From assembly GCA_050013255.1 (NCBI GenBank), contig JBEKFP010000002.1, forward strand, positions 32,001 through 96,000: 64,000 nucleotides of DNA. The letters run 5' to 3'. The position numbers and the translations under genes are program-made. The stretch's first letter is position 1. Each line of letters starts with the position of its first letter. The stretch comes from Candidatus Bathyarchaeia archaeon. Its GTDB lineage: Archaea > Thermoproteota > Bathyarchaeia > 40CM-2-53-6. Of this stretch, positions 28,475 to 51,579 are shown in pieces. The notes under the pieces were generated by a model that was not told the origin of the DNA, ran no database searches, and was given only the letters and a program-made list of their open reading frames with translations.

Positions 28475-29428
28475 ATGAAGGTGCTTGTAACTGGTGGAGC
28501 TGGGTTCATTGGGAGCCATCTTGTAGAAGCTTTACTGGCGCATGGCGACGATGTTGTCGCACTGGACAACCTCAGTAGCGGTAGTTTGGATAACCTGCGC
28601 GAGTCGTCAAGCAAACCTGGCTTCAATTTTGTCGAGGCAGACCTGAAGAACTTTGGCGGATGGAATGAAGTCTTGGATGGAGTGAAACTGGTTTATCATT
28701 TCGCCGCCAATCCTGAGGTAAATGTCGGCGAAACCAACCCCGCCGTGCATTACCAGGAGAATCTTTTCGCAACATTCATGTTGCTGGAAGCGCTTCGCAA
28801 GAGCAAGGGTGCAAAGCACATCGTGTTTGCCTCCACTTCCACAGTGTACGGCGAAGCGTCTAAACTACCCACCCCTGAATCCTACGGGCCACTTTTGCCC
28901 ATCTCTACGTACGGTGCATCCAAGCTAGGCTGCGAGGTTCTCCTCAGCTCATACTCATATACGCATGGGATGCGCGCTCTAATCTTACGCCTTGGCAACT
29001 GCGTCGGTTCACGAGCAAGACACGGCGTCGTAGTGGATTTTATAAAAAAGCTGAAAGCGGATGCCACCGCATTAGAGATCCTAGGCGACGGAACCCAGAA
29101 AAAATCCTACCTCCACATCGAAGACCTCCTCGACGCGGCCGGGTTCATTAGGGATCGTTTCTTATCCTCTGAACAACGTGTCGACGTCTACAACCTCAGT
29201 TCGGCGGACCAAATCACCGTCAAACGCATCGCTGAAATTGTCGCCCAACAAATGGGCCTGCATGGAGTAAAGATGAATTTTACAGGGGGCGTCGACGGCG
29301 GGAGGGGATGGTTAGGGGACGTCAAACAAATGCACCTCTCCATCGGAAAACTGCGAAGGCTGGGTTGGACTCCGAAACTCAACAGCGAAGCCGCAGTACG
29401 GAGGGCGGCGAAGGAGCTCTTGGCCTAG
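28475..29428 (+). CDS. NAD-dependent UDP-glucose 4-epimerase family protein
   Basis: VLVTGGAGFIGSH, STSTVYG, YGASK, GWLGDV. Confidence 0.9.
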   Translation: MKVLVTGGAGFIGSHLVEALLAHGDDVVALDNLSSGSLDNLRESSSKPGFNFVEADLKNFGGWNEVLDGVKLVYHFAANPEVNVGETNPAVHYQENLFATFMLLEALRKSKGAKHIVFASTSTVYGEASKLPTPESYGPLLPISTYGASKLGCEVLLSSYSYTHGMRALILRLGNCVGSRARHGVVVDFIKKLKADATALEILGDGTQKKSYLHIEDLLDAAGFIRDRFLSSEQRVDVYNLSSADQITVKRIAEIVAQQMGLHGVKMNFTGGVDGGRGWLGDVKQMHLSIGKLRRLGWTPKLNSEAAVRRAAKELLA

Positions 29429-30159
29429 TGTCTAGACCGCAGAAATCCCAACTTATCATTACCCTCCCAGTCTACAGAGACGTAGCGTTCCTTGAGAAGA
29501 CAGCTGACGCCCTCCAAGAGATCACGCCCTCTATCTCGAAGGATTTCATCCTCTTGATCGCCGAAGACGGGTCCAACTCTTCAGAAATAGTTGAGAGACT
29601 CCGAACGAAATACCCAAACATCATCTACTTTCAAAATGATCGCAGATTGGGTAGGGGGAAGGCACTGCGGGAGGCTTGGAAGAAAGTCCGAGGCAACATT
29701 TACGCCTATATCGACGTGGACCAGGCGACAGATGTCACGAGACTAAATGCATATGCGAACCTAATCAATCTACAAGGGGACTTTGACCTCGTTACTGGGT
29801 CACGGTATATTGCAGCGTCGGTAACAGCGCGCCCTTGGCTTCGAAGAACCGCATCAATTGCATACAACTGGTGGGTTCGAATGATGTTCCGGACCGGGGT
29901 TCACGACCACCAATGCGGATTCAAGTCCTTCTCACGTGAATTAGTTGAACGACTGGCCATTGAGGCCAAGAGCGATTCTTGGTTCTGGGATACAGAGGTT
30001 ATCGTTCTCGCTAGGAAATTAGGGTTTAAAGTAAAGGAAATACCGATCTACTGGACCGAGAAAAAGGGGCGAAGAACGCCCGTCAAACGTCTACTAAAGG
30101 ACATATGGCTTCATGGAATCGGGATGCTGGGCCTGTTTTACAGGATCTGGCTCTGTTAA
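29428..30159 (+). CDS. GT2 dolichyl-phosphate glycosyltransferase (AglD/Alg5-like); last 3 codons replaced by the mobile-element insertion
   Basis: IAEDGS, GRGKA, YIDVD, TGSRY, DHQCGFK, WFWDTE; the empty site would read ...FYRIYIA*. Confidence 0.85.
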   Translation: MSRPQKSQLIITLPVYRDVAFLEKTADALQEITPSISKDFILLIAEDGSNSSEIVERLRTKYPNIIYFQNDRRLGRGKALREAWKKVRGNIYAYIDVDQATDVTRLNAYANLINLQGDFDLVTGSRYIAASVTARPWLRRTASIAYNWWVRMMFRTGVHDHQCGFKSFSRELVERLAIEAKSDSWFWDTEVIVLARKLGFKVKEIPIYWTEKKGRRTPVKRLLKDIWLHGIGMLGLFYRIWLC

Positions 30160-30205
30160 CTTGTCGGCGGACGTCGTTTAGTTTCATCCTCCTGTCAACG
30201 CTTTA

Positions 30206-31420
30206 TTGTTCAGCCGAAAGAGGCCAGTCGTCGACACAACCTTGCTTGCGGTCAAGGCGGTTCAGCAAAACTATACGCCGAACAGCCAGCTACTCGCCTT
30301 GCTTGAACAGTTCCGGCAAATGGTCAACGACTCCATTAGAATCGGACTCGCCGAGAACGTTACCAGCCTCAAGTCACTCTCCACCAAAGCTTACAATCAA
30401 CTTGCAACCTACGATGTCATGAGTTACTACAAACTCTGCGCAATCAGCAAAGCCACAGGCATCCTCAAGAACTACAGGAAAACGGAACGAAGAGGTAAAC
30501 GGGTCAGCAGGCCCTACGCCCGAAGACCGCAACTCACAACATGCTACGGATTCAAAATAAGCAGCGGAAACCTCCTACTGCCCATCAAGCCGAGGAGCAA
30601 TATCAGAATCCCCCTAAATCGTCATACGTTGCAGGTTCTTTCCGAGACTCGCCTAACGGCTCGATCGGTCACCCTCACCGCGAGCACAATTACCGTGGCC
30701 TACTCGAAAGATGTCCCAACTTTGGAACCGAGCGGATTCATGGCTATAGATAGGAACCTTGACAACGTGACAATAGCCGACTCAAACGGCTCAATCACGC
30801 GGCATAACCTATCAGAGGCTACGGAAATCAAGGCCATGTACCGTGAAGTGAAATCCCATCTGAACCGTAACGATTCCCGCGTAAAGCAGAGAGTCTACGC
30901 AAAGTACGGTATGAGGCAGCGTAATCGCGTGAGGCAACTTCTCCACCTAACCTCGAAACAAATTATCACAGAAGCTAAGAGTAGTAAGTCGGCGATTGTG
31001 ATGGAACGACTGACAGGAATACGCAAACTCTACAGGAAAGAGAATGGACAGGGTCGTAATTATCACGCAAGGATGAACGGTTGGAGCTTCGCGGAGCTGC
31101 AAAGGCAGGTTGAGTATAAGGCTAGATGGGAGGGCTTGCCTGTAATCTACGTGAACCCGTATGGTACTTCAGTGAAGTGTTCGATATGTGGGTTAAGAAT
31201 GAAACCCGAAGAGAACCGAACATTGAAGTGCCGTTCTTGCGGATTCACGGTAGACCGTGACGTGAATGCTGCTAGGAATATTCTAGCGGCTGGTATGAGA
31301 GCCCTGAGGTTCGGGGCCGTCGCGCCTGCAAGTGAAGCAATGGTACAAGAACCCCAGCGTAGGGTAATCTTGAAAGTCGATGCAGACGAGTTGACCGACC
31401 GGCATCCGCCGACAAGTTAA
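30206..31420 (+). CDS. tnpB: RNA-guided endonuclease TnpB
   Basis: RuvC-I AIDRN, RuvC-II IVMERL, WSFAELQRQVEYKA, YTS-like GTSVKCSIC...CRSC zinc finger, RuvC-III DRDVNAARNIL. Confidence 0.95.
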   Translation: MFSRKRPVVDTTLLAVKAVQQNYTPNSQLLALLEQFRQMVNDSIRIGLAENVTSLKSLSTKAYNQLATYDVMSYYKLCAISKATGILKNYRKTERRGKRVSRPYARRPQLTTCYGFKISSGNLLLPIKPRSNIRIPLNRHTLQVLSETRLTARSVTLTASTITVAYSKDVPTLEPSGFMAIDRNLDNVTIADSNGSITRHNLSEATEIKAMYREVKSHLNRNDSRVKQRVYAKYGMRQRNRVRQLLHLTSKQIITEAKSSKSAIVMERLTGIRKLYRKENGQGRNYHARMNGWSFAELQRQVEYKARWEGLPVIYVNPYGTSVKCSICGLRMKPEENRTLKCRSCGFTVDRDVNAARNILAAGMRALRFGAVAPASEAMVQEPQRRVILKVDADELTDRHPPTS

Positions 31421-31427
31421 CAGAACC
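31295..31427 (+). ncRNA. Putative omega-RNA scaffold overlapping the tnpB 3' end (guide would be the flank from 31428)
   Basis: Position typical of TnpB omega-RNA; conserved second copy at 51405-51527 with a compensatory base-pair change; 5' boundary approximate. Confidence 0.7.
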
Positions 31428-31503
31428 CAGGATCTACATAGCCTAGCACGGCTACATGACGTTTAAACTTCCATTCAGTCAGACATATTCGGGCTGAGTT
31501 CAG

Positions 31504-33159
31504 TTGACACCAGTGACGGAGCTAAGGGAAATCGCTCTAGGCAAACTGGAGGAGCTGGCTCCGGCGTCTCAAAGGGTAGCCATCTGCGAATATGGGCCCT
31601 CAGTCTATGCAAGACCAGGCTCGTACAAGGGTCAAGACGTTATGGTTGTATGCGAAAACTACGCAAATGGGCTGCGAGCCCATCTTAGGGTTATCGAAGG
31701 GCATGAAATTAGGTTCCTAATAGCCGATCGGGATCTGCTAGAGTCAGATATCAAAAGGGGGACGCTCGGTGATTTCATCACCGAGAAATTCCTGTACCCC
31801 CATCGCCCACTAGCGAATAGCGAATACGTCGAAAAAATAAGCACCCAAGCTAAGACGCGCGTCGTGAAGGAAGAAACCCGAGACCTCGTCGTGGAGTACG
31901 GTGAAATGTGCCGCGGCTTGGTTGCGAAACCGGAGTTCTTCGGCATTTCGCGAATGAGGAAGCGAGCACGCGTTTTCATGCCCAGCATGGCTGATTATCT
32001 CAGGCTCCTAGAGCCCTCAGTTCGCAAGCATAACATAGTGATAATTCAAGAATCTTTCAGAGCCGCAATTTCATCGATGAAGGGCGATGTGGTGGAACTT
32101 GAGGGTGACCACGTTGCGTTCCAGGACAACGCTATCGACCGATGGTTGAAGGACAGAGCCTCGGAGCAGGCAGTGAACATACTCCGACAGAGCCAAAGGG
32201 CATTCTACTCCTACCTCACGAAGGGGCGTTCGATTTACCTTAGCCTAGATCTCCTTGCCCGCGAACTCAGCGAGCCCATAAGGGTAGGAATCGATCCAGC
32301 ACTGATGGGAACGAAACCCGAGAACCCGAAAGATTACCTCTCCCTACGAACCTCCGAAGGCTTCACTTCCTTCAATGAGACGGCATCCTTAGAGGACATT
32401 GCATCAAAACTGCGCCCCGGACGTCCAATAACAATTTCGCCATTGGCCGGCGTTCTTAACGAAGTCTTCCTCGTGACGGCTGGAAAGGAGCAATTTGTTG
32501 CAAAGAAGTTCACGGACTGGCATGGGTTCAAGTGGTTCACGCTCAACCTTGTATCATTTGGCAGCAAAGTGTTTGCTGTATCAGGAAAGACAAGAATGAC
32601 CAACGAATATGGGATCAATCGCTACCTAGCCAAGAAAGGGTTGAAAGTTCCACAGATAATTCACGTGAACCTTAGGCAGCGAATCTTGGTTGAAAAATAC
32701 GTGGTTGGGACTGGATTAAGCGATTTCGTAACGTCAGCCGTTAATCAGAGCACATTGGCCGAGGGCCAATGTCGACTTGCCGAATCGCTTGGCGAGACAT
32801 TGGCAAGGATTCACGATGTGGGGGTTTCAGTCGGGGATGCTAAGCCGGAGAACTTTGTCGCAAGTGAGGGTGAAATCTTCACCGTCGACTTGGAGCAAGC
32901 AGGTAAACGCGGCGACTACGCATGGGATATAGCTGAACTGCTCTTCTACTCTGGACATTATAGCGCAAGTCAGATTCCCACACGCGGACTTAGCATGCTT
33001 GTTGAAGCATTCATAGAGGGGTACTTGCGGAAGGGTCGTCCTGCGGAATTGAGACGGGCTACCGGGGTCAGATACGTGAAGGCGTTCTCTTTCTGGACTC
33101 CAGCGCCGGTCATACTTGAGATATTGAGAACTCTTCACGAGGCCAGTCGGGGAGAATGA
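31504..33159 (+). CDS. Fusion of a degenerate nucleotidyltransferase-like domain and a RIO/Kdo/Bud32-like kinase
   Basis: N-terminal YGPSV...DVMVV; C-terminal VAKK, IHDVGVSVGDAKPENF, DLEQ. Confidence 0.7.
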   Translation: MTPVTELREIALGKLEELAPASQRVAICEYGPSVYARPGSYKGQDVMVVCENYANGLRAHLRVIEGHEIRFLIADRDLLESDIKRGTLGDFITEKFLYPHRPLANSEYVEKISTQAKTRVVKEETRDLVVEYGEMCRGLVAKPEFFGISRMRKRARVFMPSMADYLRLLEPSVRKHNIVIIQESFRAAISSMKGDVVELEGDHVAFQDNAIDRWLKDRASEQAVNILRQSQRAFYSYLTKGRSIYLSLDLLARELSEPIRVGIDPALMGTKPENPKDYLSLRTSEGFTSFNETASLEDIASKLRPGRPITISPLAGVLNEVFLVTAGKEQFVAKKFTDWHGFKWFTLNLVSFGSKVFAVSGKTRMTNEYGINRYLAKKGLKVPQIIHVNLRQRILVEKYVVGTGLSDFVTSAVNQSTLAEGQCRLAESLGETLARIHDVGVSVGDAKPENFVASEGEIFTVDLEQAGKRGDYAWDIAELLFYSGHYSASQIPTRGLSMLVEAFIEGYLRKGRPAELRRATGVRYVKAFSFWTPAPVILEILRTLHEASRGE

Positions 33160-50168: not shown

Positions 50169-50801
50169 TTGAAAGTTGACTATTTCACATCAAAATCCCA
50201 AATAACAATGGTCCATACTCGTATTCTTAGCGATCGTAGAATGGTCCTGTTCAAGACGACCCTGATCGGCGTATGTATCCTAGTCGCTGGCATGCTGCTG
50301 CTAACAACACTTGGGTCGTACGTGACGGTTGAGGTGCAGCAGGTGCAACACCGCGATGTTGAACCGCACGCCGAATTTCTCGTAGGAGACGTGGCGGACA
50401 GAACCTATACCCTACCAGCCAATGTAGCCGCCTCAGGGTCTGTCGATGTAACCCAGGCACCGACAAACGCGTCCGGTGACATTAGGTTCATGGTTTTTGA
50501 CGACAACGACTACCAGAAGTGGAATTCCGGCCAGCAATCAAACTTCCTGTTCTCAGCCGATAACCAAGGCAAATTCATTTTCAACTTCACAACCACCAAC
50601 ACTGGAGTCTACCATTTTGTCTTTGACAATCGGGCTTCACTGTTCAAGAAGTACATAGTTCTCTCGGTCGGTTACAGCGAGGTCACAATTAGCCACGTTC
50701 CTGACCCACGCGTACCCACCATCGGGTGGGCATTGGCGGTGGTCGGGGGAATCCTTCTAGTTTATGGGTTGGCGAGGAAACCGCCCATTCCATGGGGCTA
50801 G
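50169..50801 (+). CDS. Membrane protein with emp24/GOLD-like extracellular beta-sandwich
   Basis: N- and C-terminal TM; DIRFMVFD...GVYHFVFDN. Confidence 0.65.
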   Translation: MKVDYFTSKSQITMVHTRILSDRRMVLFKTTLIGVCILVAGMLLLTTLGSYVTVEVQQVQHRDVEPHAEFLVGDVADRTYTLPANVAASGSVDVTQAPTNASGDIRFMVFDDNDYQKWNSGQQSNFLFSADNQGKFIFNFTTTNTGVYHFVFDNRASLFKKYIVLSVGYSEVTISHVPDPRVPTIGWALAVVGGILLVYGLARKPPIPWG

Positions 50802-50979
50802 GAGTTCTGTTACCCCTTCGTTTGCTGTATTATTTTCAGTGACCTCACTGCTTAATTCTGGGTTCGACGTCAGCTTGCTTAGTCATCAGTTGATGAAGCC
50901 TCGTCAAAGGCGATATGCGGGTTCTAATACCCGAATTAGCCGACGGGGCCGATGGTGAGGTAGGGAGTTGCCTGACCAA

Positions 50980-51309
50980 TTAAGACCACGTCACTTCAAA
51001 TCTTTTGGCTATCTCTTCTCCAAAACGTAGTTCGAGATAGTAAAGAACGTTACAGAGCTTACAACGAACCTCCAAGTCGTGCGTTCTTCTTCTGCCAGTC
51101 GCTATTGCGTGAAGAAAGTCGTACCCGCGCAAATTATGACTCTCCCTTCTCCCGCCTCCACTGCGATGGTTGATTTCCAAAACGCGTGAATCGTCACAAC
51201 CGCAGTTCACACATTTTGGCCCGCCCAATTTGTCGAGTGCTCGCCTTCTGATGTTTGCGCCATATTCAATCTGATACAGCCGTTGTCTTTCTGGGTCTTT
51301 GTATGGCAT
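50980..51309 (-). CDS. Small HNH (beta-beta-alpha-Me) endonuclease-like protein
   Basis: MPYKDPE start; CVNCG...LEINHRSGGG...LEVRCKLCN. Confidence 0.75.
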   Translation of the reverse strand: MPYKDPERQRLYQIEYGANIRRRALDKLGGPKCVNCGCDDSRVLEINHRSGGGRRESHNLRGYDFLHAIATGRRRTHDLEVRCKLCNVLYYLELRFGEEIAKRFEVTWS

Positions 51310-51404
51310 GGTGGTCTTTCATTAGAGTTGAAGTTGACACTAAAAGTTTTATGCAGTGTAAAACCCTGACATGCAAACGGTCTAACTGATCCAGTGAATG
51401 CTGG

Positions 51405-51527
51405 ATGAGAGCCGTGAGGTTCGGGGCCGTCGCGTCTGCAGGTGAAGCGATGGTACAGGAACCCCAGACTGATGGCAATCCTGAAAGTCGATGCAGATGA
51501 GTTACCAAACGACAAGGTAACAGAACC
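51405..51527 (+). ncRNA. Stand-alone omega-RNA scaffold copy (guide would start GGGCTAGGCAAC)
   Basis: Closely similar to 31295-31427 without a tnpB ORF; compensatory CAGGA/TCCTG pairing. Confidence 0.7.
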
Positions 51528-51579
51528 GGGCTAGGCAACTTCAAATAGAGTTGCACTGTAAGCCGTTCTCGGTTTCATA

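Follow-up and report, generated by a model that had tools for sequence, protein, structure and literature searches.

TnpB usually resides in elements of the IS607 type or of the IS200/IS605 type, including the IS1341 group. IS607 elements have a serine recombinase, neither terminal inverted repeats (TIRs) nor a target-site duplication (TSD), and a GG target. IS200/IS605 elements also lack TIRs and TSDs, and their fixed target of 4-5 nt is set by TnpA. For the IS200/IS605 member ISDra2 a scaffold of 116 nt with a pseudoknot has been described, and cleavage needs about 12 TAM-proximal matches (PMC10097598). Gene drive by TnpB in the absence of TnpA has been demonstrated for IS605 (PMC11870625; PMC13565253). 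Association of TnpB with DDE transposases, which the sequence-only reading of the present locus had expected from surveys, is indeed published and includes mobilisation in trans: TnpB branches DDE-1 to DDE-6 were described in 2023 with TnpB between inverted repeats and its 3' end less than 250 bp from the transposon end, together with solo TnpBs with matching ends, for which movement in trans was proposed; the DDE partner given there is IS630 (Altae-Tran, PMC10691335). According to a 2026 review, prokaryotic OMEGA systems are rarely paired with DDE transposons, the partners being ISL2, IS630 and IS1031, because their rigid layout of TAM and guide is ill-suited to enzymes that make TSDs (PMC13565253). 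Fanzor1 and Fanzor2 are likewise RNA-guided nucleases within TIR/TSD transposons, in this case eukaryotic DDE transposons, in which the TAM includes the 5' TSD and the scaffold includes the 3' TSD, the pseudoknot having been lost in Fanzor1 (PMC13565253). The broad ISfinder IS6 family contains long members with N-terminal zinc fingers (Varani 2021, PMC7986276; Harmer and Hall 2019, PMC6807381). TnpB does not occur in the text of the IS6 review (PMC7986276), nor is IS6 mentioned in the text of PMC13565253 or PMC10691335.

The 64,000-nucleotide stretch of Bathyarchaeia DNA analysed here (the window) contains a tnpB element with TIRs and an 8-bp TSD (Table 1). The sequence-only reading had described an intact tnpB between 23-bp inverted repeats, flanked by an exact 8-bp duplication, and had proposed that excision restores the end of the upstream GT2 gene. 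All of this was reproduced: the repeats agree at 22 of 23 positions, CAGGATCT is identical on both flanks, and in silico removal of the element together with one repeat yields the GT2 end FYRIYIA*, while the filled allele, unchanged in length, ends in FYRIWLC*. The empty site that this history implies was found in a congeneric genome (G042, L270), with 90% identity across the junction and a single 8-mer region, and the GT2 site is also empty in two more distant genomes (G044 and G046). The window DNA is present in peat and wetland metagenomes, and its closest named relatives are Bathyarchaeia MAGs. Contigs of four peat/wetland metagenome DNA runs span the element and both junctions, and no joint skipping the element is listed in them; in one run (X12) reduced depth over the element is a hint, and only a hint, at a mixed population. 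On the downstream side, a 551-aa ORF (window 31504-33159) has a C-terminal Bud32-like kinase domain that scores below the family cut-offs and an N-terminal part without annotation.

Table 1. Features of the tnpB element and its insertion site (window coordinates)
Feature	Position	Strand	Remarks
Host GT2 glycosyltransferase ORF	29308..30159	+	only the last three residues replaced, YIA* -> WLC*
TTTA directly 5' of left TSD, candidate TAM	30137..30140	+	family consensus W-T-R
8-bp TSD, left copy	30141..30148	+	
IS6-like-ended tnpB element	30149-31427		1279 bp; tnpB is the sole gene
Left TIR, IS6-like	30149..30171	+	
tnpB, 392 aa	30242..31420 (open from 30206)	+	RuvC D170/E255/D340, C4 zinc finger
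omega-RNA scaffold, conserved core	31301..31427	+	about 127 nt; covarying helices
Candidate pseudoknot	31308-31312 with 31423-31427		loop can pair with the last five bases
Right TIR, also 3' end of omega-RNA scaffold	31405..31427	-	
8-bp TSD, right copy; first 8 nt (seed) of predicted guide	31428..31435	+	guide role predicted by analogy with ISDra2 layout (PMC10097598)
Predicted 16-nt guide	31428..31443	+	at <=1 mismatch the sole genome match is its own site, behind GAACC and not TR

The tnpB ORF lies above the cut-off of the NCBIfam guided_TnpB model NF040570 (131.8 versus 100 bits) and matches Pfam PF07282, and the motifs AIDRN, VMERL, CSIC/CRSC and DRDVNAA, which contain the RuvC D/E/D residues and the C4 finger, could all be located. 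The TTG at 30242 is more likely to be the start than 30206, as close homologs have 388 aa and cover the 392-aa form fully. The stop codon is situated inside the right TIR. By strict motif patterns, a full ORF with all three RuvC motifs is present in 28/43 copies. A sigma-70 promoter scan, which does not apply to an archaeon, gave no match.

The window family shares with ISDra2, the IS200/IS605 elements and the IS1341 group an intact RuvC domain, an omega-RNA that overlaps both the end of tnpB and the right terminus of the element, a scaffold of about 120 nt, a guide predicted to be drawn from the 3' flank, and standalone omega-RNA copies. The transcript itself is predicted, its fold being shown by strong covariation: among 58 sequences 97.9% of the cells of the core are paired, as compared to 23-37% in slid controls, and 19 of 30 pairs show a compensatory change. 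One of the helices uses bases within the right TIR, so that the proposed double role of this TIR as the 3' end of the omega-RNA scaffold holds in the covarying fold. The loop GGUUC can form five pairs with the terminal GAACC, with 100% of the cells paired, three G-U-compatible single changes and no compensatory change, which makes a terminal pseudoknot of the scaffold likely; the pseudoknot of ISDra2 is at the same place (PMC10097598). A search of Rfam revealed no family for the omega-RNA, and a match to mir-190 with an E value of 0.38 was discarded as noise.

How widespread is this arrangement? Searches of the family, of metagenomes and of the phylum yielded 120 distinct homologous loci, which are related and not independent, so that results are given as counts and significance would be overstated. 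The same right end is found at 115 of the 120 loci. At the 111 evaluable loci the TSD is perfect in 44 cases and has one mismatch in 6 and two mismatches in 4; 41 loci have none and 16 no clear left end. Since 50 of the 111 have the same ends and a TSD with 0-1 mismatch, the duplication and the ends of the window element are not a matter of chance, and other copies, as anticipated, carry the same TIRs and 8-bp TSDs and not hairpin ends of the IS605 type. The 41 copies devoid of a TSD, among them one apparent chimera of near-identical copies (L203 versus L342), fit replicative cointegrate-forming transposition, but also age or mis-assembly. The tnpB elements are 1.23-1.34 kb long. The right-end consensus among 43 insertions is G at position 1 (43/43), position 2 (42/43) and position 7 (43/43), whereas the left ends are more degenerate, with G as first base in 30/43; the better conservation of the right end, evident over the first four bases, is expected if this end serves two roles, as TIR and as RNA. 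Copies that are 92-94% identical are found at unrelated sites, most of them with their own perfect TSD, and these include the second tnpB element of the host genome (G000, C1:854024-855281), which has 59% protein identity to the window copy and a TSD of 7/8. The host genome also contains several MITEs of about 350-380 bp with the same ends; three of them have a perfect 8-bp TSD and carry the omega-RNA region without any ORF. In a quick IQ-TREE phylogeny of 78 rows, one clade (SH-aLRT 96) unites 63 TnpBs, each of them from an element with the IS6-type right end, and stands apart from outgroup TnpBs of 30-35% identity without TIR or TSD. Counts of end labels on this tree carry no weight here, since the loose label misassigned L048, L319, L320 and L322 and some stray second matches. 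No viral contig among those searched matched the exact TIR.

Several further elements were observed in the course of this survey. In the omega-RNA MITEs (L005:205-560, L006:213-570, L007:231-580, L008 and L009) about 170 nt located 5' of the core can be aligned to the part of tnpB that encodes the zinc finger; the reading frame is lost, the stretch is conserved among the MITEs and it contains a near-perfect 14-nt palindrome. At L006:2204-2230 (G000 C2:479453) there is a lone TIR nearly identical to that of the window element, for which no partner end was found. The window itself harbors at 50795-51535 (L304:104-828) an element of 725 bp that has ends of this type, a perfect 8-bp TSD, TR 5' of its left TSD and the omega-RNA core at its right end, in which a 109-aa opposite-strand ORF with CxxC and HNH-like motifs replaces tnpB. 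Finally, a distant TnpB of 28% identity (L048, G035:C2:55411-59409) lies between other inverted ends that start with AGGC, with a flanking repeat of 7/8, and is possibly a second, independent pairing of TnpB with DDE elements in the same family.

Which enzyme moves the element? Neither the Y1 transposase (PF01797) nor the serine recombinase (PF00239) was found by profile searches in the host genome, a MAG that is 100% complete by markers and 8.6% contaminated. Membership in IS200/IS605 (including the IS1341 group) and in IS607 is ruled out by these two results, respectively, together with the TIRs and the 8-bp TSD. Instead, the host genome encodes two full IS6-type DDE transposases (PF13610) of 376 and 416 aa with SWIM and Zn-ribbon domains, which reside in elements of 3.7 and 3.1 kb with GG-N-N-N-TGT ends and perfect 8-bp TSDs. 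Their ends are identical to the right TIR of the window element at only 13-14 of 20 positions. However, an exact 20-bp TIR search retrieved from another genome a 4462-bp autonomous element (L289) with an IS6-like transposase and a perfect TSD, both ends of which are identical to the window TIR over 20/20 bp, and thus an IS6-like transposase bounded by the same ends, as had been sought, does exist. Moreover, 80 transposase-bearing units share the end consensus with the tnpB elements, while tnpB and a transposase were found together in none of 129 TSD-bounded units; at L190 and L337 they occur as separate neighboring elements. The window element, too, encodes no transposase, as stated at the outset. 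Given the autonomous L289 with the same TIR, the shared end consensus and the lack of any unit combining both genes, the best reading is that the window element is very probably moved in trans by an IS6-like transposase encoded elsewhere. The earlier proposal of DDE-driven mobilisation in trans is supported by IS6-like elements with related ends and 8-bp TSDs, though the putative helpers in the host genome match at only 13-14/20. PF13610 is mostly absent (2/22) from genomes of the sister genus (g2) with 9-15 tnpB matches, which speaks against mobilisation in trans unless it occurs in episodes or the helper is missing from the assemblies.

The assignment to IS6 is valid in a restricted sense. 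With the broad IS6 family the window family and its helpers share the GG start, G at position 7, the 8-bp TSD, the DDE_Tnp_IS240 domain and MITEs (criteria of PMC6807381), but the helper elements differ from IS6 by the SWIM and Zn-ribbon domains, by transposases of 375-416 aa and by a size of 2-7 kb in most cases; they carry passengers, and several are often stacked at a single site. The helper-type transposases score below the cut-off of the NCBIfam IS6 model NF033587 (102-115 versus 125 bits). The ends called IS6-type in the sequence-only reading keep that name for their GG start, G7 and TSD length, and for the transposases the term IS6-like applies with the broad meaning of ISfinder and not with that of strict IS6/IS26. 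The latter, an IS of about 0.8 kb with a single H-HTH plus DDE transposase of 220-250 aa, was rejected for the window element, which has no transposase and the helper of which is longer and below the model cut-off.

The IS6-like elements show some features of their own. SWIM/Zn-ribbon IS6-like cargo transposons form head-to-tail stacks at L303 (G000 C1:180900-185700) and also at L122, L138, L145 and L146, with the same 8-mer between neighbors; stacking involves 35 of 80 units, and G046 has insertions at the G000 site, too. Comparison of two 99% identical contigs (L337:5491-7597 versus L338) revealed in one of them an IS6-like element of 2.1 kb that carries DUF3800 cargo and is flanked by an 8-bp TSD, a recent insertion polymorphism 0.3 kb from a tnpB element. 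At 35 of 70 transposase-element sites (L091-L160 and L346-L424), one side consists of the TSD, 5 nt and TTTAW, resembling an archaeal BRE/TATA promoter, which makes promoter-side targeting, independent of transposase orientation, probable for these elements.

The tnpB elements are found at a different kind of site, marked by a one-sided motif that the sequence-only reading had not noted. Directly 5' of the left TSD, position -2 is T in 42/43 insertions and position -1 is A or G in 41/43, and the dinucleotide TR occurs there in 40/43 as compared to 12/43 on the right side and a background of 10.5%. The bias is seen in all three identity bands (11/13, 16/17 and 13/13) and in 4/4 omega-RNA elements without tnpB. 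W at position -3 is symmetric (36/43 and 38/43) and looks like the transposase's own preference. An explanation of TR through stop codons was rejected, as all four bases are about equally frequent at the first TSD position (A11 C10 G10 T12). Since TR occupies the very position required of a TAM for a guide that starts with the 3' TSD, it is probably the TAM of this family, and would lie outside the TSD. In contrast to IS200/IS605 with its fixed target, the window family combines TIRs with a variable 8-bp TSD and W-T-R only, and in contrast to the DDE-borne Fanzors the TAM appears outside the variable TSD, the guide seed would be supplied by the 3' TSD and a pseudoknot is likely to have been retained. 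The predicted guides of the host-genome elements have no second site with <=1 mismatch in the genome, and no regulatory target was found for them.

Taken together, the element appears to be a non-autonomous transposon in which IS6-like ends enclose an OMEGA module, and it is reasonably likely, if far from certain, that it is moved in trans and then kept or spread by homing, the TR bias arising from selection after insertion. In such a scheme, an IS6-like SWIM/Zn-ribbon/DDE transposase encoded elsewhere would insert the element and generate the 8-bp TSD, a step for which the inference is strong. A transcript running through the right end would then give rise to the omega-RNA, with the scaffold ending in the TIR and the guide consisting of the 3' TSD and the downstream flank. 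For cleavage TnpB would presumably depend on a short TAM, W-T-R, that adjoins the target on its 5' side. In an empty allele TAM and full target are together and would be cut, while the filled allele would be safe: at its left junction the TAM is followed by no more than 8 matching bases, which should escape cutting since ISDra2 TnpB needs about 12, and at its right junction the complete match is preceded by GAACC. If the filled allele survives or serves as repair template, the insertion would be kept and spread as in homing or gene drive, so that insertions beside TR in the right orientation would be those seen as MAG consensus, and the mild T/W preference of the transposase at -2 and -3 would often supply TR sites. 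A difficulty for this model is that a TATA-like site, with a WTAAR box at a distance of 5 nt to the TSD, is found at half of the transposase-element sites (35/70) but only 3/43 tnpB elements; such different site types under one enzyme can be explained only through selection after insertion.

Could the helper transposase alone, as an asymmetric subclade, make the one-sided TR at insertion, with the TAM having co-evolved as in IS605 or TnpB being a passenger? Asymmetric targeting is conceivable for these enzymes, as half of their sites have the WTAAR box on one side, with T common on that side at -2 (24/33) and -3 (20/33), and the MITEs with perfect TSDs show TR too. Nevertheless, the host flanks next to transposase elements show TR in only 29 of 111 cases, without any fixed base at -1, L289 with its identical TIR has neither TR nor the WTAAR box, and the motif tracks the orientation of the omega-RNA despite near-identical ends. 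Against a mere passenger speak seven same-site tnpB pairs from different genomes with a shared right flank, the dN/dS values of which (0.16-0.28, at dS 0.10-0.94) indicate that tnpB is under purifying selection. Insertion bias made by the transposase alone is therefore unlikely. If the same-site insertions were inherited, the nuclease would have stayed functional at its site, an outcome expected under homing or gene drive.

The inheritance assumption behind the dN/dS values is weakened by one such pair (L023/L204), in which the perfect TSDs differ at the same base in both copies, suggesting two separate insertions at one base position, and this leaves room for guided insertion. It could be imagined that a TnpB RNP docks at TAM sites, whether or not the guide matches, and there attracts the IS6-like transposase, which would insert at TAM+1 to +8 in fixed orientation, as a minimal CAST-like system. 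Concordant TSDs are what two insertions at one position would leave, the orientation-specific T at -2 and R at -1 are near-absolute, and tnpB elements differ in their type of insertion site from the transposase elements that share their ends. Cas12k, a known transposon-guiding protein, is nuclease-dead. The RuvC triad of the window family, unlike that of Cas12k, is intact in most copies by the strict patterns given above, tnpB and transposase are never joined in cis in the 129 TSD-bounded units, the concordant TSDs are a single pair, and selection after insertion explains the bias without any new interaction, which leaves guided insertion a quite improbable explanation. If it were true, the family would represent a nuclease-active two-component forerunner of RNA-guided transposition that overrides the promoter-side targeting of the transposase. 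That the ends are IS6-like relics, the element now spreading only by homing and horizontal transfer or being moved by another DDE family, would agree with the many tnpB-rich genomes without an IS6-type transposase match, the degenerate left ends and the low protein identity of the two host-genome copies, but is very improbable, as homing cannot create new TSD-flanked sites such as those of the 92-94% identical copies, the end consensus and TSD length match those of SWIM-IS6-like elements, and one such element is polymorphic beside a tnpB element (L337/L338).

What does this locus add to the homing and trans-mobilisation already described for TnpB? DDE-linked, trans-mobilised TnpB is known, and the window clade may be one of the six branches DDE-1 to DDE-6 of PMC10691335; the inverted repeats and the position of the 3' end are shared, but tnpB and DDE transposase within one element were found in none of the 129 units, and PMC10691335 gives no TSD or TAM geometry. 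The IS6-like partner, in place of IS630, ISL2 or IS1031, and the geometry of TAM and TSD are apparently new: no paper describing TnpB with IS6-like ends or this layout was found in a search that covered mainly open-access literature.

To the problem that a rigid TAM and guide layout poses for enzymes that make TSDs, the window family would offer a simple solution, with a minimal TAM outside the duplication, the duplication as guide seed, and TAM and target split in the filled allele. It makes exact predictions, namely the TAM W-T-R, a guide starting at base 1 of the TSD, a 127-nt scaffold and a named helper transposase. If active, the 392-aa nuclease with its 2-3 base TAM would be useful as a compact editor. 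Moreover, the family allows a test of TnpB as homing or gene-drive agent for an element that is possibly never excised cleanly.
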